A DNA stretch of 64,000 nt from a phage. A program made the translations under genes and the position numbers. Within the stretch, counting starts at the first letter, position 1; every line of letters starts with the position of its first letter. The stretch lies in the sequence record PZ445527.1. The stretch is one strand, 5' to 3'. The notes under the pieces are model-generated. The model saw nothing but the letters and a program-made list of their open reading frames with translations. It made no database searches and was not told where the DNA came from. Shown here one piece after another: positions 20,824 to 42,187 of this stretch.

Positions 20824-20859
20824 ATTTGATCCCCTAGTTAGTTGTATAAATACATTATA

Positions 20860-20896: not shown

Positions 20897-20919
20897 ACTT
20901 CGAATATTACGTGTGGGTA

Positions 20920-21867: not shown

Positions 21868-21901
21868 ATATTTCCTTTGTTTTAGTTACAGTTAATAAAA
21901 T

Positions 21902-26993: not shown

Positions 26994-27001
26994 GATTTAA
27001 A

Positions 27002-27217: not shown

Positions 27218-27280
27218 AAAAATATCCTTGATTAGTTAGAGAATTAGTAGATTCTAGGGGCAGAAGCCCCTATTTATCTA

Positions 27281-27796
27281 TTACTTCGCTTTACGTTTAC
27301 GAGCTGGTTTAGCAGATTTACGAGCAGAATCACCCGTGAACTTAATGCCTACACCGTAACACAGAGCACGAACATTATCTTTACTATACTCTACGCCAAA
27401 GATATTTGGCTTAACAGAACCAAACTGTCCACGAGTATCACGCAATACATCTGCCGTTGGTTTGCGTTTCTGGTTAACTGCTTTCTCGTAATCTTTCATG
27501 GCCATGCCATTACGAGGGAACAATTCTGCTCCAGCATTGAAACTCAGTGCTACGGGAACAGATTTGTGACCGTAACCCTGTACATAGGTCACAAGGCGGG
27601 TTACAGAACGAGTAGCATTCTTAGCCTTCGGCTTTTGACGAATCGGAGCCGGACGATTCAGTGCCTGTGCAGCTTGAGCATCAGTAGGGTGCTTGCGCAG
27701 GTGGCGTTCCAGACGAGCTTTGCGGTTAGCCTCAGTCTGAGGGAAAGTTTTAACTGTAGTAGCTGCTTGAGTTTTTGCGTTTTTCTGCTTAGCCAT
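27281..27796 (-). CDS. highly basic putative nucleic-acid-binding protein (171 aa)
   Basis: First ORF after promoter 27835..27863. Lys/Arg-rich termini and optimised codon use. Confidence 0.6.
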   Translation of the reverse strand: MAKQKNAKTQAATTVKTFPQTEANRKARLERHLRKHPTDAQAAQALNRPAPIRQKPKAKNATRSVTRLVTYVQGYGHKSVPVALSFNAGAELFPRNGMAMKDYEKAVNQKRKPTADVLRDTRGQFGSVKPNIFGVEYSKDNVRALCYGVGIKFTGDSARKSAKPARKRKAK

Positions 27797-27834
27797 TATT
27801 TGTTTTCCTTTTTGTTTATCAATTTATGAAGTAT

Positions 27835-27863
27835 ATTATACGGTAATTTGAAGCGTTTAGCAA
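27835..27863 (-). promoter_or_regulatory. T5-type early promoter (TTGCTA-17-TATAAT)
   Basis: Hexamers and spacer read directly. Confidence 0.75.
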
Positions 27864-27871
27864 ATGAATTT

Positions 27872-28321
27872 TTAATTTATTAACTGTAAGCTTCTTTTAA
27901 TTTCAGACCTTACCTGCATCAAAAGAACTCCTAAAGTATTGTCCCCGATGCCTCGGCAAACACCCCAATATGTATCTCCCCAGGTATTTCCTTCGATCAA
28001 AGTTGCATTTTTTGTTGCTAACAGTTTGTCCCTCAAATCAGGGATTGCAAACTTTAACCGTAAAAGCTCTAGCATTACGTCATCTTTTACCTTATCCCAG
28101 TCAGAGCGCAGAGTTAATTTACGTCCCCTACGTTTGGCAACTCCTGCATTTAGGGAGCGCAGTACATGAGCTACATCATCTTTTTGGTCGGATTTCATAG
28201 CCTGAAAAGCATGTTCTACAGTATCAGCATGCCATATCTCATTTAGATATTCGAAAGTAATTGGTGATAAATAAAAGTTAGATAAAAAACTATAAGTACC
28301 TTTAAATTCAGTAATCTTCAT
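27872..28321 (-). CDS. NADAR (YbiA/DUF1768) domain protein (149 aa)
   Basis: Family hallmarks YSFLSNFYLSP...VEHAFQAMK...GNTWGDTYWGV. Confidence 0.75.
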   Translation of the reverse strand: MKITEFKGTYSFLSNFYLSPITFEYLNEIWHADTVEHAFQAMKSDQKDDVAHVLRSLNAGVAKRRGRKLTLRSDWDKVKDDVMLELLRLKFAIPDLRDKLLATKNATLIEGNTWGDTYWGVCRGIGDNTLGVLLMQVRSEIKRSLQLIN

Positions 28322-28602
28322 TTTTTACGCCCCGCATCTTTAGCCTCCTCGGCTGTATAGATATACTGATAAGCCCCTTTGGAGTAGGCTGGAGCAGTAC
28401 ACATTTTCTTACGCTCAATCTCTTCTTGAGCTTTTCTTTCGCGTTCAGCTAATTCTTCATCCAGATAAACTAAACGTTGTTCTGGAGGAGGTGGAAGACG
28501 TGTTTCTGGCTCACCAATATTAGCCTTTCTTATTTGACGAGGTGATTGTGCACGTTTTCTCAACGGTTTAAATCCTAATGAATTTGAGTTATAAATTCGC
28601 AT
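28318..28602 (-). CDS. hypothetical basic protein (94 aa)
   Basis: First ORF after promoter 28630..28658, with RBS GAGGAGGG. Confidence 0.55.
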   Translation of the reverse strand: MRIYNSNSLGFKPLRKRAQSPRQIRKANIGEPETRLPPPPEQRLVYLDEELAERERKAQEEIERKKMCTAPAYSKGAYQYIYTAEEAKDAGRKK

Positions 28603-28629
28603 AAAGCCCTCCTCACTTTCAATACGAAT

Positions 28630-28658
28630 ATTATACTAAATTAGAGGGCTTTAAGCAA
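28630..28658 (-). promoter_or_regulatory. T5-type early promoter (TTGCTT-17-TATAAT)
   Basis: Hexamers and spacer read directly. Confidence 0.75.
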
Positions 28659-28678
28659 GAAGATTTTTAATTTATTTA

Positions 28679-29155
28679 TCACATCTCGGCAAGTTCTTGC
28701 TCAGTAATAACAGTATTACATAATGCGTCAACTTCTTCATTACCTCTAATACCTGAGTGCCCTTTAACCTTAATAAAGGTAGGGTTAGTATTATGAAAAT
28801 TAATATACTGTTGGGTTAGTTTAAATGCTTCTTGCCATAGTTCTAAATTGAGAGGAGCTTCACCATCTCCCTTCTTCCAGCCTTTCTTCTGCCAAGACCA
28901 CATCCAGCTTTCCATACCATTTTTACAGTATGCAGAATCAGTGTAGATTATAACTGGACGTTTATCATTCTTAGTAGCCCAGCGCAGAACTTCAACAATA
29001 GCTGTAAGTTCCATTTCATTGTTTGTGGTTTTTGGACTGAAACCCGACTTAGAACCCAAACGTTCGTCATTAGGATCATAAACTACGAAACCCCAAGCAC
29101 CTAAACCAGGATTACCTTTACAAGCCCCATCTGTATATATATGAAATGTACTCAT
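28679..29155 (-). CDS. rnh: ribonuclease H (RNase HI type, 158 aa)
   Basis: RNase HI motifs IYTDGACKGNPGLGAWG, NNEMEL, YTDS and a C-terminal GN..D. Confidence 0.85.
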   Translation of the reverse strand: MSTFHIYTDGACKGNPGLGAWGFVVYDPNDERLGSKSGFSPKTTNNEMELTAIVEVLRWATKNDKRPVIIYTDSAYCKNGMESWMWSWQKKGWKKGDGEAPLNLELWQEAFKLTQQYINFHNTNPTFIKVKGHSGIRGNEEVDALCNTVITEQELAEM

Positions 29156-29694
29156 TTATTAAGTTCCTCTAAAATAGGGGGTGGTTTTGTGGAATCAAAA
29201 GTTTCTATAACAGCGTTTTTACCGTGTAACTGTAGACGAAGTTCATTGGCACATTGAATGGCGGATTCTAGGTCTTTGTACTCAAAATAACCACCATATA
29301 CTGACTTTTTATCGGAGTCTCTAACATGTACTTGCCATTTCTGATTTTGCCTATTCCAGCTAATTCCTAGATAACCAGATTTACTTCTAGTGGTTTTATT
29401 TCTCTGATTCTCTTGGTAATTAGATTTCCTGAGATTAATCCATCTATTATCATCTCGTATGCGGTTTATGTGGTCTACCATTTCCGGTAGATAGCCTTCC
29501 ATATAGAGAAATGCTAGCTGATGCGCATAATATGGATTTTTATCCACGGATATAGTTATATATCCGTCTTTTCTTAGATGACCAGCAATACTTCCTATTT
29601 TTCCGTTTCTACCCCTGACTCCCGTCCTTCTAGTAAATATTCCGGTATCGGGGTTATAATCGAATAGTTCTTTTAATCTTTCTTGTGTGATCAT
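29152..29694 (-). CDS. HNH homing endonuclease (MITQERLKEL family, copy 2)
   Basis: Same N-terminus, HNH motif (VDHINRIRDDNRWINLR) and C-terminal ...EELNK as copies 1 and 3. ATGA overlaps on both sides. Confidence 0.8.
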   Translation of the reverse strand: MITQERLKELFDYNPDTGIFTRRTGVRGRNGKIGSIAGHLRKDGYITISVDKNPYYAHQLAFLYMEGYLPEMVDHINRIRDDNRWINLRKSNYQENQRNKTTRSKSGYLGISWNRQNQKWQVHVRDSDKKSVYGGYFEYKDLESAIQCANELRLQLHGKNAVIETFDSTKPPPILEELNK

Positions 29695-30074
29695 TCATCT
29701 AACCATCCTATGTCTATACTAAGTAATGCTTTTATTCCTGTAATACCTGTACCATAGGTATTATATCGAATAGCACTTCTGCTCTTTACTTCAAGTATAT
29801 TTTCATACTCTGTATTTTCTAGAATTTCTGTAGATATACCTAAATATCCTGATTGATCTTCCTCGTCCCAACCCATATCTTCTAGAAGATTTAGACGTAA
29901 TTCTACCTTCTCATCTCCATTGCCTACAGAGTAGTAGTCTTCTAAAGTCCTGAATTTAGAAGTGATAGAGTCTAGTATTAATAATATCTGTTCCTTAGTA
30001 ATAGTTTCTTTATCACCCTGTAAGTAATTGGAGTAATTCAGAAGGGCTTGTTCTAATTCAATTTCTTTACTCAT
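29691..30074 (-). CDS. hypothetical acidic protein (127 aa)
   Basis: First ORF after promoter 30116..30145. Confidence 0.55.
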   Translation of the reverse strand: MSKEIELEQALLNYSNYLQGDKETITKEQILLILDSITSKFRTLEDYYSVGNGDEKVELRLNLLEDMGWDEEDQSGYLGISTEILENTEYENILEVKSRSAIRYNTYGTGITGIKALLSIDIGWLDE

Positions 30075-30115
30075 TTTATTATCCTTTTGTACTTATTGAG
30101 TATATTATATTTAAA

Positions 30116-30145
30116 ATTATACCTAATAAGCAGGTACAATTTCAA
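30116..30145 (-). promoter_or_regulatory. sigma70 promoter (TTGAAA-18-TATAAT)
   Basis: Hexamers read directly; 18-nt spacer. Confidence 0.55.
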
Positions 30146-30149
30146 ATAT

Positions 30150-30170
30150 AATAGCCCCGAAAGGGCTATT
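30150..30170 (-). terminator. rho-independent terminator after thyA
   Basis: TAGCCC-TTTC-GGGGCTA stem followed by TTATATTT on the minus strand. Confidence 0.6.
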
Positions 30171-30174
30171 TGAG

Positions 30175-31014
30175 TTAAGAAGACATCTTAGCTTTAAGAG
30201 CTGGGTGAGGATCATACCCCTCCAAATGGAATGACCAAGCTGCCGTATTATTTTCTAGTAAGTCGTAAAGATCTACAAATTCTGGCATTACTAGAGTCGG
30301 TAAAGGACGAGGTTTACGTTTTACCTGTTCTTCTACCTGTTCCATGTGGTCATTATAGATATGAGTATCGCCGCCACTAAAGATAAGGTAGCGAGGTTTT
30401 AATCCTGTCAGTTTTGCTAATATATGCGTTAATAAAGCATAACTAGCAATGTTGAAAGGTAAACCGAGGAAACAATCCACAGAACGTTGTGTCCATTTAA
30501 GATCTAGGTATCCATCGTTACTTACATAGCACTGGAAGCCGTAGTGACAGGGTGGTAATGCCATTTTATCAAGTTCAGCTACGTTCCATGCAGATACTAG
30601 GTGTCTGCGACCATGTGGGTTATTTTTGAGTCCCTCAATAAGTTCTATAATCTGATCTCGTCCACCAAAGTTGCGCCATTGTTTACCATATACTGGCCCT
30701 AGATTACCTTTGTCATAACCCATACTTATGGCTTGGTCTTCGTAGTTTGGAGTCCATATAGTCCATTGCCCCTCATCACACCCAAAAGTGAATACACGTA
30801 GATCATGAAGATTTGTGGAACCAGACAAGAACCATAAAAGTTCTCCTACTACTGATTTCCAGGCCAGGCGTTTAGTAGTTACAGCCGGGAACCCTTCACG
30901 TAGATCGAACTTAGCATAGGAATCAAAAATTGAAACTGTGCCTGTTCCTGTACGGTCATTACGGGGTTCACCTAGTAAAATTACATCTGTCAAAATTTTT
31001 AAGTATTGTTGCAT
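30175..31014 (-). CDS. thyA: thymidylate synthase (279 aa)
   Basis: MQQYL...RNDRTGTGT...LPPCHYGFQCYV (catalytic Cys)...DTHIY motifs. Confidence 0.92.
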   Translation of the reverse strand: MQQYLKILTDVILLGEPRNDRTGTGTVSIFDSYAKFDLREGFPAVTTKRLAWKSVVGELLWFLSGSTNLHDLRVFTFGCDEGQWTIWTPNYEDQAISMGYDKGNLGPVYGKQWRNFGGRDQIIELIEGLKNNPHGRRHLVSAWNVAELDKMALPPCHYGFQCYVSNDGYLDLKWTQRSVDCFLGLPFNIASYALLTHILAKLTGLKPRYLIFSGGDTHIYNDHMEQVEEQVKRKPRPLPTLVMPEFVDLYDLLENNTAAWSFHLEGYDPHPALKAKMSS

Positions 31015-31547
31015 TAATAAGTAACCAATTCCTGTACAAATCGCAGGCTGTTATCACTGTTTGCGCCAACTGCATAGACTAATCGAGTGGATTCATAGTT
31101 ATAATCCAGTATCATACTATCTAGGTGTGTATCTGCCTCTAGCTTCTGTTCGCTAAAGATTGTAGATACAAAAGCACTTTCAATATGCCCATGTTGGTAC
31201 ATTTCTAGAAGAAGACTAGCTCCACCTAGAACTACTGTTTGCTGATCTTTTAGAAAGGTAGGTAATGTATCACCTATCATTGATATGGGAGTGTAAATAT
31301 CGTGTGTAATATCGTCTGGCAGTGGACGATCAGCACGAATAAATAGGTCAGAAGCTCCAATCATACGTTCCCTAACGGTATATGGAAGAGCTAAATAAGT
31401 ACCCGCACCAATGATGATATTATCGGGATTCAACACGTCCAGTTGGGAATAGAAAGCATTCAGCTCTTCCTTGAAGGAGCCCCAAGGAAGCTTACCCCGG
31501 AGGCCGAACTCCCCATTCGGCCCAACTGCATACATTGCTGTAATCAT
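31014..31547 (-). CDS. frd: dihydrofolate reductase (177 aa)
   Basis: N-terminal DHFR signature with GKLPW; sits between nrdB and thyA with overlapping junctions. Confidence 0.8.
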   Translation of the reverse strand: MITAMYAVGPNGEFGLRGKLPWGSFKEELNAFYSQLDVLNPDNIIIGAGTYLALPYTVRERMIGASDLFIRADRPLPDDITHDIYTPISMIGDTLPTFLKDQQTVVLGGASLLLEMYQHGHIESAFVSTIFSEQKLEADTHLDSMILDYNYESTRLVYAVGANSDNSLRFVQELVTY

Positions 31548-32689
31548 AGGAAATCTCCAAATTCATTACCCAAATCTTTCAGGGTATCCATAGACGTTTC
31601 TGTGACTTGACCTACACGGTAGGCTGCACCAATCTGGATTTCTTGTGGAGCAGGCTGTAGAGAGGTAGTATCCAACCAGTTCATGATCCACGGAATAGGG
31701 TTTTTGGTGATTACTGGTAAGTGACTAGGCCATTCTACACCAATGTGCATAAATGCATTACGCCCCACAAAGTACAGATATTCTTCTAGAAGTTCTGCAT
31801 TCAAACCAATCAGACTACGACCTTTGAAGATGAAATGACCCCATTCAATTTCAGTTTTCAGAGTTTTCAGGAGCTGTGCTGGTGCTTTAGCCACTGCTTC
31901 ATCTACCAGATCTTTGTCAAACTGCTGGAACATAATCTGGATGATTGTTTTAGACATCTGCGTGTGAAGGGCCTCATCCTTAGCAATCAACTGCAGATTT
32001 TTAGCAATACCTTGCAGAATATCGTTCTCTGCTAACGCAAAGGTACATGCAAAGGATGCGTAGAACTGCATTGCTTCCAGACCGTAGATTGCAAAATAAG
32101 CATCTAACAGTTTAGCCTGAGTTTCACGCTTAACTTCAGGGAACTCAGTTTCTGGGTATGTATTGTCACCACGATGATCACGTACTGCGATGAAATACTG
32201 ACCTAACTGGTACAGTTCATCAAATAGTTCAACAGAATCTGCGATACGTGCAAATGCTTCTTGGTTTTTAGTTACAGAATCAATAAATTCTGCCGGATCA
32301 GTCAACACATTACGAATAATATTGCTATAGGCACGACTATGCAGGTCTTCAAAGTAGCTCCACTGTTTTAGCATTCCTTCCAGTTCAGGGCGGCTTACAA
32401 GCGGCATAATAGCTGCTTCAGGTGCGCGACTAATGAAAGAATCTGTTTGGGTCTGCCATGCTAAGTTCAGGAGTGTAATTTCCTGAATTTCACGAGGGAG
32501 GTTAGGCCATTGTTTCTTATCAGCCTCTAAACTGATTTCTGTCTCAGTCCAAAATTGAGAGCGTTGCAGAAGTGCCAGACGCTCTAATTCTGGATGTGCT
32601 ACGCGTACATAATCTGCGATACCTAGAGAATCGCCCAGGAAAAGATCAGCGTTAGTATGATCCCAATTCAGGTTTAGTAAAGTAGTCAT
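31544..32689 (-). CDS. nrdB: ribonucleotide reductase class Ia beta subunit (381 aa)
   Basis: Di-iron ligand pattern (E..H in FEDLHSRAY and KDEALH) and an acidic C-terminal alpha-binding tail. Confidence 0.9.
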   Translation of the reverse strand: MTTLLNLNWDHTNADLFLGDSLGIADYVRVAHPELERLALLQRSQFWTETEISLEADKKQWPNLPREIQEITLLNLAWQTQTDSFISRAPEAAIMPLVSRPELEGMLKQWSYFEDLHSRAYSNIIRNVLTDPAEFIDSVTKNQEAFARIADSVELFDELYQLGQYFIAVRDHRGDNTYPETEFPEVKRETQAKLLDAYFAIYGLEAMQFYASFACTFALAENDILQGIAKNLQLIAKDEALHTQMSKTIIQIMFQQFDKDLVDEAVAKAPAQLLKTLKTEIEWGHFIFKGRSLIGLNAELLEEYLYFVGRNAFMHIGVEWPSHLPVITKNPIPWIMNWLDTTSLQPAPQEIQIGAAYRVGQVTETSMDTLKDLGNEFGDFL

Positions 32690-32720
32690 TGATTTTCCTC
32701 TTTCTCACTATTTCAGGAAT

Positions 32721-32749
32721 ATTATAGCAAATCAGATAGCGATTAGCAA
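32721..32749 (-). promoter_or_regulatory. T5-type early promoter (TTGCTA-17-TATAAT) for nrdB-frd-thyA
   Basis: Hexamers and spacer read directly. Confidence 0.75.
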
Positions 32750-32755
32750 GTAAAA

Positions 32756-33247
32756 TTATAAACTATCAAGCTCCAATAGTTTAGCATCACGCCATTCTAT
32801 AGCATCCTCTAATTCTTTAAATGTTTTTGTATATTTTACGCCTTTACGAGCTATCTGGACTTGATATGATCCACTAGCTTTTTGATGAATATTTTTAATA
32901 CCTAGCTTATTGTCTTTATGCGCCCCGACATTCTTTCCGTTACTGAATCTATCAGAAGCTACTAGGTTAATAGCTCTATTATCATGTCGTATTCTATTAT
33001 CGTGGTCTACTTCAGGTGGCAGATACCCATGAATTTTAGCAAAGATTACCCTATGGGCTAAGTAGGGGTATCCTTTAATATTTAATACTATATATCCTGT
33101 AGATTTATCTAAGGAGCCTGCTGGTTTTCCGGCATATTTGGTATTAAATGTTTTATTATCTCTAGGTCTATGAGTCAATATTCCAGTATATGGATCATAA
33201 TCAAATAATTTAGCTACCTCTAGATGATCTTCTAATGTTTTTGACAT
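32756..33247 (-). CDS. HNH homing endonuclease between nrdA and nrdB (about 163 aa)
   Basis: HNH_3 motif VDHDNRIRHDNRAINL plus an AP2-like C-terminal half. The track ORF starts at 33262, but MSKTLEDH at 33247 is more likely. Confidence 0.8.
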   Translation of the reverse strand: MSKTLEDHLEVAKLFDYDPYTGILTHRPRDNKTFNTKYAGKPAGSLDKSTGYIVLNIKGYPYLAHRVIFAKIHGYLPPEVDHDNRIRHDNRAINLVASDRFSNGKNVGAHKDNKLGIKNIHQKASGSYQVQIARKGVKYTKTFKELEDAIEWRDAKLLELDSL

Positions 33248-33311
33248 AATTATAATTTCCAACCAATTAGTATAAAAATAAGAGGGTTATAATTAACCCT
33301 CTTTACTAGTT

Positions 33312-36300
33312 TTATAAGGTGCAGCCACCTGAAGAACATCCTGTAGTTTCTCCAGCTCCTCCACCATTCGCAGTGTTAAAGTTAGCATAATACCAGGTTT
33401 TTATACCATACTTAACCGCAGTCATAAAGTCACGAACTACTACTGGGCCAGGGATGATTTCATTCTCGAATTTAGAGTAATCATAATACATCTGGAAACT
33501 TGATGACTGACTCAAGAATTTTTGGTAAACGGCGTTCCACTTGATCCACTCAATACGATCTACATCATAGGCCAGTTTATAGCTCATGAGAGTATCCCAA
33601 TCAGTTGCACCTGGGGCAATTGCAATTACTTTATTCACTGCACTACCCTTGATAGATACAATCTTACGAGGTGGTTCAATAGAGTTAGTAACGCCTAACA
33701 GAACAGAGGAACTTTCTCCCGGCATCTGCGCAGTCAGAACAGAGTTACGCATACCGTATTTCAGAATGTCTGCACGCAGAGATTCCCAATCCATTTCTAG
33801 ACCTACGGATACCAGCTCATCAACAGTTTTCTTATACGTGTCGATTACCAGAATTCCTTTGGATGGTTTAGTACGATTAAACCATTCACATGCACCTTGT
33901 TCTTTAGCCAGACGTACAGAGGCTTTATGTAGGAAGTAAGACAGTTTTTCAGCTTCACGATGAATCCAGTTACGTGCTTCAACGCCTTCATAAGCCAAAC
34001 CTTCCGCCGCCATTGCACCTGCTGCGTTCATCAGACCAATACCAACATTACGACGTTTCTTAGCCGTATATTCCATAGTTGGGAACGGATAATCCTGAAT
34101 TTCAATGATGGTATCAACGAATTTCAGGAGGATGTAGCAAGTTTTCTCCCACTCAGCCAGAGATTCCATGCGTCCTAGTACAACACCACCTAAGTTACAC
34201 AGAGATACTTCACCAATATCCTCTGGCTTCATTTGATCAAGCTGCTCTTTTGTCTTATACAGCTCTGTGATATGATGGAACGGGCGTGTAGGCTGAGTAA
34301 TTTCTACACAGTTACCCGCTAAAATGCCATTAAATACACCTAAGTTTAATTTAGGTTCTGTAAAGCAATAAGTATCACTAATACGACCAGTAAACTCAAC
34401 GTTAGTTACAGTTACAAAACGGGTTGCGTCTCTATTGGGGCGTGTTAGGTTTAAGAGTTTCTCTTTATCCAAAGAGAGTCCTAAATCTTTAAGTTTCCAG
34501 AAGCCACTACTCCCCACAATAAGCCTACTAGTCTCCTTGCAGTGGTATAGTTTACTAGTACCAGTACCATCTGGTAACTCGTGGTCACCTTCTTTGCGTC
34601 CTAAAATAATCTTGCTAGTAACCCCCAATTCTAGTAACAAATCCTTCACTTTACTTAGAAAATCAGGCTCTGCCGAAGCAACCACAATACTAGGAGTTGT
34701 GCCATTTTTCTGTATGCAGCCATCTGCATCTAAATATCCCTCTAACCATTTGATACGGCTATCAATAGTATACTCTGGGCCAGGTACAAAATACTTCGGC
34801 ATTAAATCAGACTTAACAATATAGCTCAGTCTACCTGTGCTGTCCAGTAATCCACTTCCCTGAATTTCTGCGTCAATTTTATCCACTAATGGTAGTTTGC
34901 CACCTTTTTCATAGAAGTACAGCTTAGGTTCTCCATGTCTTCCATAAGTTCCATCTCCAGTGAAGAAACCGTTAGTATAAGGAGATTTTAGTACCATATT
35001 TCCATGATCTACAATAGGATTACTAAATTTAGGCATTTTCATACCTACTTGCAAGTCTACTGCTCGTACCTCTTCTAGCCCCTGTTTGAAAGAGGTACGA
35101 CGATCCTCTCTGACATATTTGGGCTGGTGGTAGAACTTATGATAAAGAGTAGATTCAATAGTAGATCCATCAGAGAATGTGATTTTTATCAACTCCTGAG
35201 CTTCCCCAGTTTTAGTAGGGATAACTGTTGACCATTCTTGTCCGTTCCAAATCTCTACTTCTTTACCAACTAAATCAATAATCTCTATGTTACCATTTTT
35301 GGTTAAAATTTTTGTTTCTGGAGCTACACAAAGGTTTGTCATACGGATTGGATCAAGGAAGTTACCGTGACGATTAGATTCCCCGATGTGGTGCGCATAC
35401 ATACGTCCTGTTTCCATTCGGATACGTAGCCAAGTATCTAGGATTTCTTTTGCAGAGACTTTAGGAGCTGCTGGAACTGTTTTTCCTTCGTGGTCGATCT
35501 TTGTAAGAGATGCCACACGTTTCTCCGCTGCCACGTAGATTTCTTCAAATTTAGCCTCGTCATCACTATAAAACGCTTCATGAACTTCTGGAGCATAGAA
35601 GTATGACATTAGCGTAATATCTTCATTTTTCAGATAACGTTTTAACAAAAGATTGTTGAAGCTCAGAGAATAATCCATCTTATCAATTTTATTCTCGTCT
35701 GTAGCACGTTGTTGCTTAACCTGCATCAACTGAATGATTTCAGGGTCAAAGTATGGATAAGACACTGTAGCAGAACCACCACGAGTTTGCTGAGTATTGG
35801 CCTTTACTGAGCGATCAATGTGTCGATAATATGGCAGTTTTCCGGAATGCGGGAATGCCCCATTTCGCACCGGATCAGCAATTGATCTGCTTTCAAGATG
35901 ATACCCGATTCCCGCTCTGGCTGCAACCATTTTGAAGACGATGTGCTCGGCGGTGTCGATTGAATCCAACGTGTCAGTGGAATCCACGAGGCAGCAACTA
36001 GCAAATCCACGGTCACTAGAGCGCAGACCAACCAGTGGCGGCGTAGGAACGTTGATTTTGTGGAGCGACATTGCGTTGTAGAGGTCGATTGCATCTAGAA
36101 TTGTCCAGTTAGGTTGAGATAACATCGCCATTGCCATACCCATGTAGGCAAACTGCGGAGTTTCATAAATTTCACCAGTGGCTATGTTGCGGCGGGAATA
36201 CTTATCAAAGAACTGCTTCAGTCCACCACTAGTAAAAAGACGGTCACGATCATGGTCGATAACCTGATTCAGAGCTTCAAATTGCTCATCGGTAATCCAT

Positions 36301-36659
36301 GCACTCATGTCTTCCCATGCACCTACGCTAACCATGTGGTCATGGAAGAAGCGCAGAGAAGGTGGTTCGAAGGAATCATAAAGGCGTTTACGCATTTGCG
36401 CAAGACGTAATTCCTTTGCTGGCACATCGTATGCTGGGTTATCTTTGATAAGGCTTTCAGCAGCCTTAATTAATGCGTCCATCAGAGTGTCGGAATCTAC
36501 AACCCCTTTAGGCAGAGTTTTTTGAGCAGCCATAGTAATGGCTGACCAACTTACATCAACTGTTTTGCAACCATACTCTGCCCAACCATTGAGTTTTTCA
36601 GGAGCAAAGTCTTCTACAGTACCGTCACGTTTAATTACTTTTTCAATGCGATGGCTCAT
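33312..36659 (-). CDS. nrdA: ribonucleotide reductase class Ia alpha subunit precursor containing an intein (1115 aa; about 775 aa after splicing)
   Basis: ATP-cone (VIKRDGTVEDF), RNR barrel motifs and a C-terminal CSSGGC redox pair. Start at ATG 36659 after AAGGAAAA; the track ORF extends to 36764 across the promoter. Confidence 0.9.
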   Translation of the reverse strand: MSHRIEKVIKRDGTVEDFAPEKLNGWAEYGCKTVDVSWSAITMAAQKTLPKGVVDSDTLMDALIKAAESLIKDNPAYDVPAKELRLAQMRKRLYDSFEPPSLRFFHDHMVSVGAWEDMSAWITDEQFEALNQVIDHDRDRLFTSGGLKQFFDKYSRRNIATGEIYETPQFAYMGMAMAMLSQPNWTILDAIDLYNAMSLHKINVPTPPLVGLRSSDRGFASCCLVDSTDTLDSIDTAEHIVFKMVAARAGIGYHLESRSIADPVRNGAFPHSGKLPYYRHIDRSVKANTQQTRGGSATVSYPYFDPEIIQLMQVKQQRATDENKIDKMDYSLSFNNLLLKRYLKNEDITLMSYFYAPEVHEAFYSDDEAKFEEIYVAAEKRVASLTKIDHEGKTVPAAPKVSAKEILDTWLRIRMETGRMYAHHIGESNRHGNFLDPIRMTNLCVAPETKILTKNGNIEIIDLVGKEVEIWNGQEWSTVIPTKTGEAQELIKITFSDGSTIESTLYHKFYHQPKYVREDRRTSFKQGLEEVRAVDLQVGMKMPKFSNPIVDHGNMVLKSPYTNGFFTGDGTYGRHGEPKLYFYEKGGKLPLVDKIDAEIQGSGLLDSTGRLSYIVKSDLMPKYFVPGPEYTIDSRIKWLEGYLDADGCIQKNGTTPSIVVASAEPDFLSKVKDLLLELGVTSKIILGRKEGDHELPDGTGTSKLYHCKETSRLIVGSSGFWKLKDLGLSLDKEKLLNLTRPNRDATRFVTVTNVEFTGRISDTYCFTEPKLNLGVFNGILAGNCVEITQPTRPFHHITELYKTKEQLDQMKPEDIGEVSLCNLGGVVLGRMESLAEWEKTCYILLKFVDTIIEIQDYPFPTMEYTAKKRRNVGIGLMNAAGAMAAEGLAYEGVEARNWIHREAEKLSYFLHKASVRLAKEQGACEWFNRTKPSKGILVIDTYKKTVDELVSVGLEMDWESLRADILKYGMRNSVLTAQMPGESSSVLLGVTNSIEPPRKIVSIKGSAVNKVIAIAPGATDWDTLMSYKLAYDVDRIEWIKWNAVYQKFLSQSSSFQMYYDYSKFENEIIPGPVVVRDFMTAVKYGIKTWYYANFNTANGGGAGETTGCSSGGCTL
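34311..35330 (-). mobile_element. intein (340 aa) with a LAGLIDADG homing-endonuclease domain, inserted in the NrdA catalytic N-L-C-x-E loop
   Basis: N-terminus MTNL|CVAPETKILT, C-terminus GILAGN|CVEITQPT. Dodecapeptide motifs NGFFTGDGTYG and LEGYLDADGCIQ. Confidence 0.85.
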
Positions 36660-36697
36660 TTGGTTTTCCTTTTTATAGTTATCAGGATTTAAGGAAT

Positions 36698-36726
36698 ATT
36701 CTACATTATTATTGGTCATTAGGCAA
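36698..36726 (-). promoter_or_regulatory. sigma70 promoter of nrdA (TTGCCT-17-TAGAAT)
   Basis: Hexamers and spacer read directly, between the terminator and the nrdA RBS. Confidence 0.6.
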
Positions 36727-36742
36727 ATAAAATTTTCTGATA

Positions 36743-36774
36743 GAAAAGGCCCGAGTATTTTCATACCCAGGCCC
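36743..36774 (-). terminator. rho-independent terminator
   Basis: A 10-bp stem GGCCTGGGTA/TACTCGGGCC (two G:U pairs), loop TGAAAA, followed by TTTTCT. Confidence 0.7.
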
Positions 36775-36803
36775 TCTGTGTTGTCAGTCTAGTTTTTGGC
36801 CAC

Positions 36804-37001
36804 TTAAGTTCTCAGCAGAATATCTATCGAGGTACTTAGTTCACTATAATTGAAGGGCCGATTTGGATTTGAGGTTACAATTTTCCACGCTAGGGTAGTC
36901 TTAGGACTTTCTTCCCCTTCCTTACGTGTAATCATATTAGCAGCGCTCAGTGAAGTACGATGTATTTTAGTTTTTCGGTGTAGATGTACAACGTCTCCCA
37001 T
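36804..37001 (-). CDS. hypothetical small protein (65 aa)
   Basis: ATG 37001 lies 2 nt after the phoH stop, with AAGGTG as RBS. The track's 88-aa version overlaps phoH. Confidence 0.45.
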   Translation of the reverse strand: MGDVVHLHRKTKIHRTSLSAANMITRKEGEESPKTTLAWKIVTSNPNRPFNYSELSTSIDILLRT

Positions 37002-37002
37002 A

Positions 37003-37755
37003 TTACACCTTCCCCATGTCTTTAAAAATATCGTAGAATGCTTTAGACTCAGCAGAACGAACGTTATCAATTAATTCGATCATTGAGAATGGAGCATTTT
37101 CATATTTCTCATAAACTTCCATAAGAAGTGCTAGACCTGAGTCACCTTTAATGTCTTTCTGAGCTATATCCCCGCAGATAATCAAACGGCAGTCTTGTCC
37201 TACACGAGTTAGGAGACAAACCATTGCCTCAACGGAAATATTCTGAGCTTCATCGACAATTACATAGGAGTTGTTGAAAGTTCTGCCACGAGCATGTTCT
37301 ATAGCCAAAAATTTAATTTTCTGACGTTCGACATATCCCTTATAGGCATGATCACCGATGGCCCATTTCATACCATCAGCTATTGGCTCCAACCAAGGCT
37401 CTAGCTTTTCGGCTAGATCACCAGGAAGCATACCAAGAGACTTACCTAGAGGTTCATTAGGACGTACGAGAATCACTTGCTCAATATCTGAGTGAATGTC
37501 TACGAGTTCCTGAGCTGCAAGAACGGACGGAATAAAGGTTTTACCAGTACCTGGCTCACCGATACCCACAGTCACTGTGTTGTTCTTGATCATATTGATA
37601 TATGATTTTTGCTCGCGGTTTTTACCTACTAGGGATTTAGCAACTGGGTTAGCGTAATCATTAGAAAAATCAGCCTGAATTACGTTATTCTCATATTTGT
37701 TGCCACGCTTTCTTGAACCATTGCGGTTCTCTCTTTTTTGACGTGCTTTTCCCAT
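37003..37755 (-). CDS. phoH: PhoH-like ATPase (250 aa)
   Basis: Walker A GEPGTGKTF and Walker B VIVDEAQN. ATG 37755 is 8 nt after TAGGAG, whereas the GTG at 37764 abuts the RBS. Confidence 0.85.
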   Translation of the reverse strand: MGKARQKRENRNGSRKRGNKYENNVIQADFSNDYANPVAKSLVGKNREQKSYINMIKNNTVTVGIGEPGTGKTFIPSVLAAQELVDIHSDIEQVILVRPNEPLGKSLGMLPGDLAEKLEPWLEPIADGMKWAIGDHAYKGYVERQKIKFLAIEHARGRTFNNSYVIVDEAQNISVEAMVCLLTRVGQDCRLIICGDIAQKDIKGDSGLALLMEVYEKYENAPFSMIELIDNVRSAESKAFYDIFKDMGKV

Positions 37756-37830
37756 AAATAACACTCCTATAGTGTACTTCGCTTCTAACAGAGGATCAAC
37801 AAAAGATCTTGTTTATCAACTTACAAATAT

Positions 37831-37859
37831 ATTATACCAGTATATACAGTAAAAAGCAA
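37831..37859 (-). promoter_or_regulatory. T5-type early promoter (TTGCTT-17-TATAAT) for phoH, leftward arm of the divergent region
   Basis: Hexamers read directly; about 70-nt 5' UTR. Confidence 0.7.
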
Positions 37860-37904
37860 CTACAATTTTAAATAAGCCTATGATATTGCATTTAAATAAA
37901 AAAT

Positions 37905-37933
37905 TTGCTTGCTTATAGAGGTAGAAATATGAT
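37905..37933 (+). promoter_or_regulatory. sigma70 promoter (TTGCTT-17-TATGAT), rightward
   Basis: Hexamers and spacer read directly in the AT-rich divergent region. Confidence 0.5.
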
Positions 37934-38030
37934 ACTAGATAATCATTTATTTATATGTAAAAATACTATGCTGTATAGCATCAATAAAAATTGATAAAAA
38001 TCAAAAGTCAAATAGTATTAGAAAAATGTA

Positions 38031-38059
38031 GTTGACGTATGGGGTGGAATTATGTATAA
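38031..38059 (+). promoter_or_regulatory. sigma70 promoter (TTGACG-17-TATAAT), rightward
   Basis: Hexamers read directly, 22 nt upstream of the AAGGAG RBS of ORF 38082. Confidence 0.7.
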
Positions 38060-38081
38060 TATGTGAATTAAGGAGAATTTA

Positions 38082-38747
38082 ATGGTAAGAAAGAAAATAA
38101 CTACAGAAGATGTGAACTTAGCACTTGCTCCCAGAGGAATAATTATGCTAAGCACGTATATATCAGCTAAATCCAATGCTATATTTAAGTGCTCTAATGG
38201 GCATAGTTGGGAGGCTAGAGTAGATAATGTAAAAGGTGGGAGAGGTTGCCCTTATTGTGCTAGTCGTACTTTAGATCTTAAAGAGGTAAATGAATCCTTA
38301 GCTGCTCGTGGAATAAAGATGGAAGGTAAATACATCAATTCTAAGAGTAAAATTATGTTCAGCTGTGAGAATGATCATAGGTGGGAGTCTACCCTTGATA
38401 GTGTTAGAAATCATAATTCTGGTTGTCCTATATGTTTATTAGAGAAGGATAATTATCCTACTAACGTATATATTTTAGTAAGTAGTATGGGAACCAAAAT
38501 AGGGATGTCTAGCAGAACTAAAGATAGACTCAGAGATATTAAAACTTCTTCTAACATACATGATTTAAAAATATTTAAGGAATATAGCTTTTCAGATAGA
38601 TCAAAAGCTGTGCGTATTGAAAGAGAAGCCCATTTACAGTTTAAGGAATATAATTGTCAGTACAAAGATTTTGATGGTGCTACAGAATTTTTTAGTATTG
38701 AGCCAGAAGTAGTAGCAAGGTTTATTGAGGAAATAATTAATGAATAA
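38082..38747 (+). CDS. T5orf172 (GIY-YIG-related) domain protein with two N-terminal zinc ribbons (221 aa)
   Basis: Duplicated C..H...C..C modules (CSNGHSWE...CPYC, CENDHRWE...CPIC), then VYILVSSMGTKIGMS...RLRDI...GATEFF. Confidence 0.7.
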   Translation: MVRKKITTEDVNLALAPRGIIMLSTYISAKSNAIFKCSNGHSWEARVDNVKGGRGCPYCASRTLDLKEVNESLAARGIKMEGKYINSKSKIMFSCENDHRWESTLDSVRNHNSGCPICLLEKDNYPTNVYILVSSMGTKIGMSSRTKDRLRDIKTSSNIHDLKIFKEYSFSDRSKAVRIEREAHLQFKEYNCQYKDFDGATEFFSIEPEVVARFIEEIINE

Positions 38748-40587
38748 AGATGAATTGATTAGAAACTGCAAAGAAATTATTGAGGGTTCTGCTGATGAAG
38801 AGCTTCTCTTTAATAATGCGAATAAACCCTCTGAGCGTTTCCCTACACAAAGGGATATGCTTGCAGGGGAATTGAGTAAATATCTGATTCTAGAAGAAAT
38901 GCCAATTCAGATTCGAAATGCTCATATGATTGGAGATATTCATTTCCATGATGCTGACTATGCTGCATTAGGCATGACTAACTGTTGCCTAGTAGCCCTG
39001 GAAGATATGTTGAAAAATGGTATGAAAGTTGGTAATGCTGAAATTAGTACACCAAATTCTATTACTACTGCGGCGGCTATTACTGCTCAGATTATCACTC
39101 AGGTTAGCTCCCATCAGTATGGTGGTACTTCTGTAGATCGCCTTGATGAAGTATTAGCCCCTTATGTTCGTAAGTCCTATGATAAAAATCATGCGTTTGC
39201 AAAACGTTGGACTAAGGATGAAGCTAAAGCATCTGTAATGGCTACGGAGATGACTGAAAAAGAAGTCTATGACGCTTGCCAGGGTTTAGAATATGAAATC
39301 AATACCATGTTCAACTCTAACGGTCAGAGTCCATTTATTACCTTTGGTTTTGGTCTAGGAACTTCTTGGGAAGCACGTCTAGTACAGAAAGCAATACTGA
39401 AAGTACGCATGGATGGTTTAGGTATCAATAAACGTACAGCTATCTTCCCGAAACTGGTATTTGTACTTCGTGATGGCGTAAATATGAAACCAGGGGATGT
39501 TAATTATGACATCAAGAAGTTAGCTATGAAATGTACTGCTGAACGTATGTATCCAGATTATATCAGCTATGATAAGGTTGTGGAAGTTACTGGAGACTAT
39601 AAAGTTTCTATGGGCTGCCGTTCATTCCTAGCTGCTGCAGAAGATGGTGAAACTGCCGGTCGTAATAACTTAGGTGTTGTTTCTGTAAACTTGCCTAGAA
39701 TTGCTATCGAAGCTGAAGGAAATATTGACCTATTCTTTGATTTGCTTGAGCTACGTGTAGATACAGCATTAAAAGCGTTGGAGTGGAGAGTTGATCGCTT
39801 AAAATACATTCAAGCTAAAGCTGCACCCATCCTCTATATGTCAGGAGCCTTTGGATTACGCTTAGGGCCTGATGAATATGTATTCGATCATTTCTATAAC
39901 CGTGCTTCTGTATCTCTAGGGTATATTGGTTGCCATGAAATGCTACAGTTCATGTTTGGCAAAGATGTAGACACAATGTCCGAGACCTGCATCAAGTTTG
40001 TTCAGCGTGTATTGCAGTACATGCGGGATAGAGTCGATCAGAAGAAGGAAGAAACTAAGTTAGGTTATAGCCTGTATGCTACACCATCAGAGTCCCTATG
40101 TGATCGCTTTTGTCGTCTAGACCGTGAATATTTCCCGGAGCATGAAGATATTCTGTCCAAAGGATACTACACTAACTCTCACCACCTTGATGTGGAACGT
40201 AAAGTTGCCCCTAACGTGAAATTTGATTATGAATCTAACTTTACTCCGATTGCTTCTGGTGGGTGTATCTCTTATGTAGAACTACCAGATATGAAACGAT
40301 TCCCGGATGCACTGGAATGGGTTATTAATTATGCTGCTAGTAAGGTTCATTACTTCGGTATTAATACTCCAGTGGATTCCTGTGGTAAATGTGGATTCTT
40401 AGGTGAAACAGTAGCATCCGAAGATGGATTCAAGTGCCCTATCTGTGGTAATCATGACCCTGAAACTCTTGAAGTAACTCGTCGAGTTTGTGGGTATCTT
40501 GGAAATCCAGGTGCTCGTCCGTTTAACCCAGGAAAACAACATGAGGTTATGGGCAGGGTGAAACATCAGGATATTCGAGCTAAATAA
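38740..40587 (+). CDS. nrdD: anaerobic ribonucleoside-triphosphate reductase (class III, 615 aa)
   Basis: C-terminal Zn site CGKCG...CPICG and glycyl-radical motif RRVCGYLG. Confidence 0.9.
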   Translation: MNKDELIRNCKEIIEGSADEELLFNNANKPSERFPTQRDMLAGELSKYLILEEMPIQIRNAHMIGDIHFHDADYAALGMTNCCLVALEDMLKNGMKVGNAEISTPNSITTAAAITAQIITQVSSHQYGGTSVDRLDEVLAPYVRKSYDKNHAFAKRWTKDEAKASVMATEMTEKEVYDACQGLEYEINTMFNSNGQSPFITFGFGLGTSWEARLVQKAILKVRMDGLGINKRTAIFPKLVFVLRDGVNMKPGDVNYDIKKLAMKCTAERMYPDYISYDKVVEVTGDYKVSMGCRSFLAAAEDGETAGRNNLGVVSVNLPRIAIEAEGNIDLFFDLLELRVDTALKALEWRVDRLKYIQAKAAPILYMSGAFGLRLGPDEYVFDHFYNRASVSLGYIGCHEMLQFMFGKDVDTMSETCIKFVQRVLQYMRDRVDQKKEETKLGYSLYATPSESLCDRFCRLDREYFPEHEDILSKGYYTNSHHLDVERKVAPNVKFDYESNFTPIASGGCISYVELPDMKRFPDALEWVINYAASKVHYFGINTPVDSCGKCGFLGETVASEDGFKCPICGNHDPETLEVTRRVCGYLGNPGARPFNPGKQHEVMGRVKHQDIRAK

Positions 40588-40594
40588 GCTAATC

Positions 40595-40628
40595 AGCCAG
40601 GTTGCTAGTCGACCTGGCTTTTATTTTA
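40595..40628 (+). terminator. rho-independent terminator after nrdD
   Basis: AGCCAGGT-9 nt-ACCTGGCT stem followed by TTTTATTTTATTT. Confidence 0.8.
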
Positions 40629-40629
40629 T

Positions 40630-40658
40630 TTGCTTTCAGCTAAAAATATATGTATAAT
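40630..40658 (+). promoter_or_regulatory. T5-type early promoter (TTGCTT-17-TATAAT)
   Basis: Hexamers read directly; leader AGATTTATAAATTTGAGAGGAG. Confidence 0.8.
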
Positions 40659-40686
40659 AGATTTATAAATTTGAGAGGAGAAGACT

Positions 40687-41067
40687 ATGAAAGTAAAACC
40701 CTATATAGTTGAGTCTACGTGCGGGAGTTTCCATCTAGGAGTGGATGATATTGCAGAAGCTATCTTTGCTGCTACAGGTGATTACTCCCATATAGGGGGT
40801 GCTGCATACCCCACCGTTATTGGTGATTGGGCGGAAACAAATCTAGATGTATCACCATATAGCTCACATTGCTTGTTTGATGAAGACAGAGATGAGGTAA
40901 AATGTAATCTTGAATTTGTATACAATAGAGTACTAAAAGTCTATCAACACAGTGTTGAGGGATATGAAGATATTACTGGAAGTATTAAACAATATCTTAA
41001 AGATGTATACTCTAATTTTTCTGATGAAGACCTGGAAACAGTTGCAGTGGAGTTTAATAATGACTAA
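40687..41067 (+). CDS. hypothetical acidic protein (126 aa)
   Basis: First ORF after promoter 40630..40658. Confidence 0.6.
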   Translation: MKVKPYIVESTCGSFHLGVDDIAEAIFAATGDYSHIGGAAYPTVIGDWAETNLDVSPYSSHCLFDEDRDEVKCNLEFVYNRVLKVYQHSVEGYEDITGSIKQYLKDVYSNFSDEDLETVAVEFNND

Positions 41068-41293
41068 GAATGTGAAACACCTTAAATATCGCTTAATCTA
41101 TAACGGACGTATGGAAACTGAAGAGCTAGCTCAATTAGCTATTAACTCTAGTGAGGTTATGGTGCGTGCGCTAGCAATTGAAAAGTTGCGTGCTTCTTAT
41201 GAAAGCCGTATTATGCAACTGGAGGAAACCCTTTATGGGCTTCTTGAATCAGAAGCTAAAAGCAACCCAGAGGATAGACCTACTAAGCAATAA
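41060..41293 (+). CDS. hypothetical protein (77 aa)
   Basis: ATG 41060 overlaps the upstream stop (AATGACTAA). The track's 113-aa version overlaps the previous gene. Confidence 0.5.
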   Translation: MTKNVKHLKYRLIYNGRMETEELAQLAINSSEVMVRALAIEKLRASYESRIMQLEETLYGLLESEAKSNPEDRPTKQ

Positions 41294-41347
41294 AAGGTAT
41301 GCATATTATGGAATAATTTTACCCCAAAACATTATCGAAGGATTTAA

Positions 41348-42187
41348 GTGAGGAACTGTACAGTGCGTAGATTAATTATTATTAGCGGTGCAGGTTTGAG
41401 CGTTGAAAGTGGTGTACGAGCCTTCCGTACTGATACTGCTAGTGGTAAAGCATTGTGGGATGATTATGACTTAGAAGAGGTATGTAATATTCATGCCTTT
41501 CGTGGTAATTTTTATCATAAAACCCATATGTTTTACAACAAGCGTCGTGAAGAGCTAAAAACTATTGAACCCAATCTTGCGCATCTTCGTATTGGTGAGT
41601 GGTATAAACAATACCCAGGTCAAGTAGTAAACTTGACTACTAACGTCGATGACCTTATTGAGCGTGCTGGCGTTCCGCATAGTGACATTCTACATATTCA
41701 TGGGTATTTAAAAGAGGTTGTTGTAGCTGACAGCTACAATAGCAGTAATAAACGAGTTATTGATGTTGGGTATAGCTCTATTGACCCAGATGATTATAAA
41801 TGGGTTAAACCTAATGTAATCTTCTTTGGTGAGCATGCTCCAGCGTACGCAGAAATGTACAATATTTTTGATGGTATTACCAGTCAAGATATGATCGTTG
41901 TAGTTGGTTGCTCTAACCAAGTAATTAACTTCTACTGGGAATTATTCCCTGTTCTTAATTTGACTGCTGCCAAATTAATGGTAGTTAACTACTATGATAG
42001 TGCCCTAGCGACAGAGCCAGGCTATCAAGGTATGACTCGTAGTGAGATGTACCAGCTGGAAGAACGCGGTATCCCTTACTGGAGTAAAGGGGCTGTAGAT
42101 GCCTTCAGTGACCCTGATTTTATTACTCGTGTAGAAGCTCATCTAGAGGGTAGACCTTATATGCCGGGGAAACAAATATGTCCATAA
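41348..42187 (+). CDS. Sir2-family NAD-dependent deacylase / ADP-ribosyltransferase-like protein (279 aa)
   Basis: Sirtuin motifs ISGAGLSVESGVRAFR, TTNVDDL and a catalytic His in LHIHGYL. Start is GTG 41348 or GTG 41363. Confidence 0.75.
   Translation: MRNCTVRRLIIISGAGLSVESGVRAFRTDTASGKALWDDYDLEEVCNIHAFRGNFYHKTHMFYNKRREELKTIEPNLAHLRIGEWYKQYPGQVVNLTTNVDDLIERAGVPHSDILHIHGYLKEVVVADSYNSSNKRVIDVGYSSIDPDDYKWVKPNVIFFGEHAPAYAEMYNIFDGITSQDMIVVVGCSNQVINFYWELFPVLNLTAAKLMVVNYYDSALATEPGYQGMTRSEMYQLEERGIPYWSKGAVDAFSDPDFITRVEAHLEGRPYMPGKQICP

Follow-up and report, generated by a model that had tools for sequence, protein, structure and literature searches.

Sequence record PZ445527.1 is a stretch of phage DNA of 64,000 nucleotides, the whole of which is called the window below. 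Positions 28679-40587 hold a 12-kb block of nucleotide-metabolism genes in which four elements of the homing type are found: two free-standing HNH genes, an intein inside nrdA and a gene for a T5orf172 protein. The phage genes of the block had been named in an initial annotation made from the letters alone. The names are confirmed by Pfam for rnh (28679-29155, minus strand; RNase_H, E 1e-30), thyA (30175-31014; thymidylate synthase), nrdB (31544-32689; small chain of ribonucleotide reductase, RNR), nrdA (open reading frame, ORF, 33312-36764, minus strand; RNR large chain, Ribonuc_red_lgC/lgN, with the barrel domain split by LAGLIDADG_3), phoH (37003-37764; PhoH) and nrdD (38740-40587, plus strand), and for frd (31014-31547), which has no Pfam match, by the PHROG for dihydrofolate reductase.

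The four selfish elements that had been claimed for the block are all present, each in its place, with significant domain matches and intact motifs. HNH-1 (29152-29694, minus strand, 180 amino acids (aa); Pfam HNH_3, E 1.3e-11) flanks rnh, and the overlap noticed between the two genes is a 4-nt ATGA in which the stop codon of HNH-1 lies on the start codon of rnh. HNH-2 (32756-33262, minus strand; HNH_3, E 8.2e-9; PHROG 99, E 1.2e-47) lies between nrdB and nrdA, and the nrdA intein (34311-35330, minus strand, 340 aa) carries a LAGLIDADG_3 domain (E 1.2e-12). The T5orf172 gene (38082-38747, plus strand, 221 aa; two DUF4379 matches, CapR and T5orf172/MUG113, E ~1e-11) flanks nrdD; the two DUF4379 copies are its duplicated zinc ribbon, and its overlap with the nrdD start amounts to 8 nt at 38740. 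The nucleases had been assigned to four different families. There are three, HNH_3 (twice), LAGLIDADG and T5orf172/GIY-YIG, because the HNH proteins, which are 37% identical in aa sequence, fall into a single Pfam family.

More than 400 records of T5-like phages (Demerecviridae: Markadamsvirinae) match the 12-kb stretch at 80-95% identity. No single record covers more than 87% of it, and what is left uncovered corresponds exactly to the four elements. Insertion boundaries were taken from local BLAST against 8 genomes, and site occupancy from 26 genomes, namely 17-18 in a first panel and nine in an element-blind sample that was drawn at even steps down a phoH ranking with the elements ignored. 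Allele counts refer to a total of about 440 Markadamsvirinae records. Universal conservation at identical positions, which the initial annotation had named, along with a lack of nuclease activity, as the finding that would speak against selfish elements, is not what the 26 genomes display: each element is absent or replaced in relatives. The elements are thus mobile and not conserved core genes. The free-standing HNH and T5orf172 genes are present sporadically at fixed sites that are empty in close relatives, alleles of the T5orf172 gene turn over and decay at one fixed site, and the intein lies in frame at a conserved site of its host protein and is precisely absent from homologs. Each of the four sites also holds non-orthologous endonucleases in other genomes, and every element has a copy of at least 95% identity in GenBank.

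The load of four elements is the maximum of the 26 genomes compared. Three are found in SA001, phiLLS, H8, S124, SP3 and SelmaRatti (depositors' annotations being counted for some of them), and the nine element-blind genomes have 0-2 endonuclease genes in the block, with a mean of 0.67 and with neither the intein nor any T5orf172 gene in them. The description of the block as saturated nevertheless goes too far, as two known sites are empty in it: a second intein site in nrdA, which is filled in SP3, and the nrdA|phoH site, filled in S124.

The intein divides nrdA into two exteins (33312-34310 and 35331-36659, minus strand), the gene likely starting at 36659 (MSHRIEKV), and removal of its 1020 nt restores the reading frame of the host gene. 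The corresponding BLAST gap, 34311-35325, stops 5 nt before the intein end at 35330, owing to a 5-nt overlap between the flanking alignments. The intein reads CVAPETKIL...ILAGN|C, from C1 to N340 and then the +1 Cys, and its insertion point, MTNL|CVEI, is immediately before the conserved cysteine of the NLC(V)EI motif of NrdA. We take this +1 Cys to be the thiyl-radical cysteine of class Ia RNRs. When the intein is aligned with that of ICP1 and nine metagenomic relatives, the splicing residues are all present (C1, T61 and H64 invariant, N340 followed by C+1). Little or no variation is seen in C1, T61xxH64, GDG125-127, D201xDG204 and DTYCFTE, with GDG125-127 and D201xDG204 invariant, and conservation across 11 relatives extends to blocks A, B, F and G and to both LAGLIDADG Asp residues. 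The intein of the ICP1 NrdA protein, gp203, occupies the same NL|C site, has the same HINT and LAGLIDADG parts and the same penultimate Gly, and is 40% identical in aa sequence; ICP1 and most of the metagenomic relatives end in Gln, whereas the window intein ends in Asn.

The intein site is precisely empty in 22 of 25 genomes, and the three genomes that carry the intein were all fetched because they match it. Five records contain it, with about 98% nt identity in SP3, Kenya-K36/K42 and SelmaRatti (MZ501103). The SelmaRatti intein is the same element, in site and architecture as well as in sequence (98% nt identity), and has been annotated as an intein (PMC8594841). As SelmaRatti is a viable isolate, it must either make functional NrdA or tolerate the loss of this protein. 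The second intein site of nrdA (35785-35787) is unoccupied in the window, which reads NTQQTRGG without interruption; SP3, whose nrdA spans 6260-10528 of its record, has a second intein of about 304 aa (CYSADTEVL...VCGN) at NTQQ|TRGG besides the one shared with the window. Full-length relatives of the shared intein are also found inside metagenomic NrdB proteins, the RNR small subunit, three of them at 34-38% aa identity. Their location suggests a transfer of this intein lineage from one RNR subunit gene to the other.

The HNH-1 protein consists of an I-HmuI-like HNH domain and an AP2-like DNA-binding domain, and its gene is free-standing. Both HNH genes of the block encode a nuclease domain of the HNH_3 type in which the catalytic His and Asn are present, plus a separate module for sequence-specific DNA binding, and the motif DH...N...N...N is invariant among six HNH paralogs of the window. 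HNH-1 is 62% identical in aa sequence to hegE of BF23 and 67% identical to the paralog at 55085-55615 of the window; its own allele, at 95% identity or more, is found in 5 records. Together with a second gene, orf127 (29691-30074, minus strand, 127 aa), HNH-1 forms an insertion cassette at 29147-30100, homology to T5, phC17 and VAH1 stopping at 29146 and resuming at 30101. The cassette takes the place of the 5' untranslated region and first 3 codons of rnh, and thus orf127, HNH-1 and rnh make one string of overlapping genes, where T5 and phC17 have a gap of only 136 bp between rnh and thyA. A promoter-like site, TTGAAA-18-TATAAT, is located at 30116-30145 on the minus strand (11/12 in a consensus scan), with the cassette directly downstream of it. 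It is also present in T5, upstream of rnh and downstream of the thyA terminator, and the T5 annotation places a promoter there. The same promoter that serves rnh in T5 would therefore drive orf127, HNH-1 and rnh in the window.

An HNH gene with orf127 occupies the rnh|thyA site in 10 of the 26 genomes. Among the 16 that lack the cassette, two (T5 and phC17) have the bare 136-bp gap and the others carry unrelated small ORFs. The association of the two genes is strict, orf127 being present in 10/10 genomes with an HNH gene at this site and in 0/16 without one. At least 80% of the pair is covered by 37 records, and none among the matches listed has orf127 alone. The protein is strongly acidic (26 D+E against 11 K+R; pI 4.2). 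It has no known domain in Pfam, and phrog_26840, to which it belongs, is a PHROG of unknown function. Between genomes orf127 is 75-98% identical in aa sequence and its HNH partner 61-63%. These patterns indicate that orf127 is probably the hitch-hiking cargo of a two-gene HNH cassette. The adjacent 5' half of rnh is divergent: across 28901-29146, identity to most genomes is only 77-81%. HNH-1 is shared by ECO111 5-P, and there the whole of rnh is 98% identical. Upstream of rnh the identity is 93-99%. On the other side of the cassette thyA is dimorphic, with little or no DNA match to the window gene in SP3, SelmaRatti, KenyaK36, AKFV33, ABTNLsp4 and the Epseptimaviruses. The alternative thyA of SelmaRatti and KenyaK36 is abutted by a gene of 257 aa, which the SelmaRatti annotation calls a putative homing endonuclease.

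HNH-2 likely starts at the ATG at 33247 (163 aa), as in the annotation of phC17. It belongs to an insertion cassette at 32758-33347, between the terminator of nrdA and the promoter of nrdB, that takes in the last 36 nt of nrdA; the terminator-like hairpin of nrdA is at 33280-33303 and the promoter-like site of nrdB at 32721-32749. Copies 95-99% identical in aa sequence lie at the same site in phC17, H8 and S124, a relative in Eps7 (78% aa) is annotated as 'H-N-H endonuclease F-TflVI', and 4 records have HNH-2 at 90% identity or more. The nrdB|nrdA site is empty in 15 of 25 genomes, in which the gap measures 175-181 bp. At least three other HNH lineages occupy it elsewhere, those of T5 hegH and SA001 (35% aa), phiLLS (46%) and AKFV33 (43%), and IrmaTschudi/1-19 has an HNH gene of 519 nt in the same gap.

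The 3'-terminal tract of nrdA next to this cassette (33348-33550, minus strand), which encodes the C-terminal tail of NrdA, is linked to HNH-2. The tract is dimorphic. It differs at 1-6 of 204 nt in phC17, H8 and S124, all of which have HNH-2, and in SelmaRatti and Salten, and at 40-47 nt, or 9-11 aa, in the rest of the first panel; the next 560 bp of nrdA are uniform, at about 92-93% identity. In the nine genomes added later, the 400-bp bin that covers the tract is 80-83% identical (90% in VEc33). The common tail allele contains WVATMQKFFSQSISTN and the HNH-2-linked one WNAVYQKFLSQSSSFQ. This tract is a candidate for a co-conversion tract or for an allele that is immune at the target site.

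In the T5orf172 protein two treble-clef zinc ribbons and a CapR-like domain precede the nuclease domain. The latter has the GIY-YIG fold, in a model that was built on a shallow alignment (only 7 relatives in the homolog search), and the zinc-finger repeats are of the DUF4379/CapR type, their two C..H..C..C tetrads being invariant in 8 sequences. The insertion cassette spans 37956-38754: sequence matching T5, BF23 and Eps7 is lost at about 37949-37955 and is found again from 38755. It takes the place of the native promoter, the ribosome-binding site and the first 14 codons of nrdD, so that MNRNEELKYKEMQA has become MNKDE. The promoter that nrdD possesses in BF23 and T5 is missing from the window, and a strong promoter-like site, TTGACG-17-TATAAT, is found upstream of the T5orf172 gene at 38032-38060 on the plus strand (consensus scan 11/12). 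This site would drive both the homing endonuclease gene (HEG) and the overlapping nrdD. Thus, with its own promoter replaced by the cassette, nrdD now appears to be expressed from the HEG promoter, through overlapping stop and start codons.

Occupancy of the phoH|nrdD site was determined in 25 genomes. No endonuclease gene is present in 14, and the allele of the window is found in 4. Five more carry T5orf172 alleles of 45-46% aa identity, and the remaining 2 have an HNH gene of opposite orientation; the empty sites measure 385-467 bp. Counted among the 14 is phC17, which upstream of nrdD (5022-5216) has an ORF of 64 aa, 62% identical to the C-terminus of the T5orf172 protein and apparently the decayed remnant of a HEG at the same site. 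Records with the T5orf172 gene at 90% identity or more number 21, and the annotation of VAH1 calls the same gene 'T5orf172 domain protein'.

Downstream of this site nrdD exists in two lineages. That of the window is 88-97% identical in nt sequence to nrdD of T5, BF23, NG_A1, Eps7 and others. The alternative lineage, in SP3, SelmaRatti, phC17, H8, S124, KenyaK36 and VAH1, is 62-70% identical to the window. The lineages split within Tequintavirus genomes that are otherwise 90-95% identical, and the divergent segment extends from the HEG site to about 40700-41066. A T5orf172 allele of 301 aa is accompanied by the alternative nrdD in 4/4 genomes, and the 221-223-aa allele by the window-type nrdD in 4/5, the window being counted. 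The exception is VAH1, a recombinant that has the T5orf172 gene of the window at 97-99% and then, within about 200 bp of the junction, the other nrdD lineage. The two T5orf172 allele classes track two deeply diverged nrdD lineages (~65% nt identity). About 150 bp (50 codons; window 39891-40033) that the window shares with every other genome compared are missing from nrdD of the T5 reference.

Taken together, the domains, motifs, folds, exact boundaries, presence and absence, allele replacement and linked flanking alleles described above suggest that the block holds four independent selfish elements of homing type in the early region of a T5-like phage of the Markadamsvirinae, a reading to which we assign a probability of roughly 0.85. 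Cleavage, target sites, homing, splicing and promoter use are deduced from the sequence, and the process may be pictured as follows. During co-infection, each nuclease would nick or cut the element-free allele of a related phage, in or beside the neighboring conserved gene. Recombinational repair from the element-bearing genome would then copy the element together with some flanking sequence. The intein would leave NrdA by protein splicing, and such self-removal would cost the host little. The free-standing genes would be wired into host transcription, orf127, HNH-1 and rnh, whose stop and start codons overlap, standing under what used to be the rnh promoter, and nrdD, whose promoter and first 14 codons the T5orf172 cassette appears to have replaced, being read from the promoter of the HEG. 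The putative T5orf172 remnant in phC17 fits a cycle of invasion, decay and loss.

The initial annotation had further suggested that recombination breakpoints might cluster beside each endonuclease gene. A discordance statistic was used here: after removal of the elements, the change of identity specific to each genome was measured across every point, with flanks of 200, 300 or 500 bp. As the first panel had partly been chosen for sharing elements, the points were re-tested on the element-blind sample and on the seven closest relatives. The suggestion is borne out clearly for two elements. The HNH-1 junction is at the 98th percentile in the full and element-blind panels and at the 72nd-80th in the seven closest relatives, and the T5orf172 junction is at the 96th-99th percentile with all genomes and at the 12th-63rd in the element-blind sample, its signal depending on a minority nrdD lineage that is absent from that sample. 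For HNH-2 the effect is local (52nd-96th percentile, highest at 200-bp flanks), and the suggestion fails for the intein.

Several observations weigh against the selfish-element reading or some part of it. At the intein junction there is no discordance (0th-17th percentile in the full and element-blind panels, at most the 43rd in the seven-genome subset), and co-conversion around the intein is rejected on the lack of signal there in all three panels. The joint permutation P varies with panel and flank, from 0.001-0.05 with all genomes to 0.02-0.19 in the element-blind sample and 0.1-0.46 in the seven closest relatives. The frd|thyA junction, which is free of HEGs, also reaches the 94th percentile, and free-standing HEGs lie at gene boundaries, which are natural module borders anyway. 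Clustering of breakpoints is not established by these data as a general statistical rule. The penultimate residue of the intein is Gly (..ILAGN) and not the canonical His of block G; a non-canonical residue at this position is common to all 9 aligned relatives in which the C-terminus is present (..TGQ/..TKQ), and Gly in place of His is not known to bar splicing. HNH-2 is located past the terminator-like hairpin, and a convincing promoter for it is lacking, which makes its expression uncertain. Finally, the T5orf172 motifs VYIL, KIG, R..R and G.TEFF are kept in the homologs that bear this domain, and the catalytic residues were mapped onto them by motif inspection only.

The most serious competing explanation is that at least one of the free-standing genes has been domesticated, so that it no longer homes and serves the phage as a nuclease or DNA-binding protein. 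Possible roles would be the regulation of nrdD or rnh, in the manner of the PLE protein CapR, a weapon against co-infecting phages or satellites, or the making of site-specific nicks of the T5 type. The apparent capture of nrdD expression by the T5orf172 gene, by way of a common promoter and the overlap of stop and start codons, would suit such a role, as would the CapR-homology domain of its protein. HEG-derived domains have been recruited into phage-satellite conflicts (Barth et al., PMC10448857), and T5 relatives of the HNH genes have been reported as site-specific endonucleases (Akulenko 2004, as described in text citing that work). Each of the three free-standing genes, however, is missing from most related genomes, and these function nonetheless; unrelated endonucleases occupy the same sites in other genomes, phC17 has what appears to be a decayed T5orf172 remnant, and the nuclease motifs, for which domestication of the CapR type has no need, are retained. 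Domestication is therefore considered unlikely. That the genes are inactive relics of past invasions, kept only because their deletion would harm overlapping essential genes, is more improbable still: the overlaps with the start codons of rnh and nrdD do hinder clean loss, HNH-2 lacks a clear promoter and I-TevIII of T4 shows that a defunct HEG can persist (PMC2790892), but the ORFs have their full length and keep their zinc ligands and catalytic residues, those of the T5orf172 protein being putative, the nuclease domains give confident structure models, and copies 95-98% identical occur in phages of two genera from several continents, which fits recent spread.

The reading of the four elements as active and selfish can be extended, although the extension is rather doubtful. 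The free-standing HEGs might be structural parts of the module that drive whole-gene replacement of nrdD and thyA, and the segment from HNH-1 to the T5orf172 gene might be a single HEG island. If so, the expression of nrdD would depend on a HEG, host alleles would have been moved as units, and orf127 could be cargo with a role of its own in phage-phage competition or counter-defence.

Novelty, as implied in the initial annotation, does not belong to the phenomenon, since T5 itself has hegH between nrdA and nrdB and HEGs near RNR genes have been described in T5-like phages (PMC10448857). Barth, Dunham & Seed (2023) found T5orf172 HEGs to be abundant in these phages, often near RNR genes (PMC10448857). 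According to the same study, RNR genes are found in one third of T5orf172 neighborhoods, inteins turn up repeatedly in nrdA, other HEG classes are represented nearby, and in 'HEG islands' the occupants turn over between homologous HEGs, non-homologous HEGs and HEGs of a different class. The block resembles these islands in its T5orf172 nuclease with repeated zinc-finger modules of the DUF4379/CapR type beside RNR genes, in its mixture of HEG classes at one locus, in the turnover of occupants and in the position of HEGs at the borders of exchanged segments. Nothing in it is qualitatively different. Its own features are the four elements within one 12-kb module and the modest degree to which identity in the HEG-bracketed segment departs from that of the remaining genome, the latter because these phages are already 85-95% identical throughout.

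HNH-2 invites comparison with mobE of T4, a free-standing HNH gene between nrdA and nrdB whose product nicks nrdB of T2 and carries neighbors along (Wilson & Edgell 2009, PMC2790892). Both genes lie in the same nrdA|nrdB gap, mobE is promoterless and HNH-2 has no convincing promoter, and both are linked to a polymorphic tract in an adjacent RNR gene, although MobE nicks the 5' region of nrdB and the HNH-2-linked tract is the 3' end of nrdA. The mobilization of neighbors in trans by MobE parallels the co-travelling orf127. Homology to MobE was rejected, BLASTP giving E 24 for HNH-2 and 0.64 for HNH-1. The likeness is thus positional only and points to an independent invasion by another HNH lineage. 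The frd-td-nrdA-nrdB module of T4 also carries I-TevI and I-TevIII, whereas the block has no group I introns. Introns of this type, as in td, nrdB and nrdD of T4, were rejected on the lack of any Rfam match within 27000-42000 and on the uninterrupted thyA, nrdB and nrdD.

Members of the same HNH_3 family occupy the same two sites in T5 and BF23, namely hegH/P-TflVIII between nrdA and nrdB of T5 and hegE beside rnh of BF23, the latter also accompanied by orf127; F-TflI, F-TflII as well as F-TflIV also belong to the family. The heg alleles are not orthologous to those of the window (HNH-2 is 35% identical to hegH and HNH-1 62% to hegE). I-HmuI of the Bacillus phage SPO1 (PDB 1u3e), an intron-encoded HNH nicking endonuclease, is 20% identical; HNH-1 differs in being free-standing and in its AP2-like C-terminal module. 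Searched against PDB chain sequences, neither the intein nor HNH-1 nor the T5orf172 protein had a meaningful match. A homing endonuclease was noted in the nrdA-nrdB gap of AKFV33 (PMC3326045), and homing endonucleases account for most of the differences among T5-like genomes according to the BF23 paper (PMC10644984).

The phenomenon is therefore already known, and the block is ordinary biology of limited significance, with a heavier load than in any other genome compared. It is one more well-resolved case of an established pattern, in which HEGs and inteins concentrate around RNR and thymidylate-synthase genes and mark the borders of exchanged segments. The part that remains of mild interest comprises the record load, the HNH-1/orf127 cassette, the apparent capture of nrdD expression, and the way in which HEG alleles go together with deeply diverged alleles of nrdD and of the NrdA tail. 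For annotation, the boundaries of the nrdA intein, the corrected gene starts and the two-gene HNH cassette are of use. With four elements of three nuclease families in 12 kb, and with element-free T5, BF23 and VEc33 in culture collections, the block is also a compact natural test bed for collaborative homing and for the replacement of alleles by HEGs.

The window as a whole contains at least ten HEG-like ORFs, consisting of seven HNH_3 genes, one borderline GIY-YIG gene, the T5orf172 gene and the intein. As four of the ten lie in 11.9 of 64 kb (18.6%), the enrichment of the block over the rest of the window is only about 2-fold and not significant (binomial P 0.098). The further HNH_3 ORFs are at 5368-5907, 14740-15132 and 23799-24620 on the minus strand and at 47402-47974 and 55085-55615 on the plus strand, and the borderline GIY-YIG ORF is at 51189-51845 on the plus strand (E 1.3e-4, at the Pfam cutoff). 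The ORF at 23799-24620 has an extra C-terminal domain (phrog_1479), and the one at 55085-55615 lies just upstream of the DNA polymerase gene, with a single ORF of 296 aa between them. Elsewhere in the window, a cluster of 12 tRNA genes is found at 15619-21976; one of them, at 17941-18017 on the minus strand, is a tRNA-Asp for which ARAGORN gives the unusual anticodon ATC. An ORF of 172 aa at 20305-20823 on the minus strand has a Toprim_2 domain and may be the TOPRIM protein of T5 (ORF071, 'Rad'), which the BF23 paper describes as an anti-retron factor.

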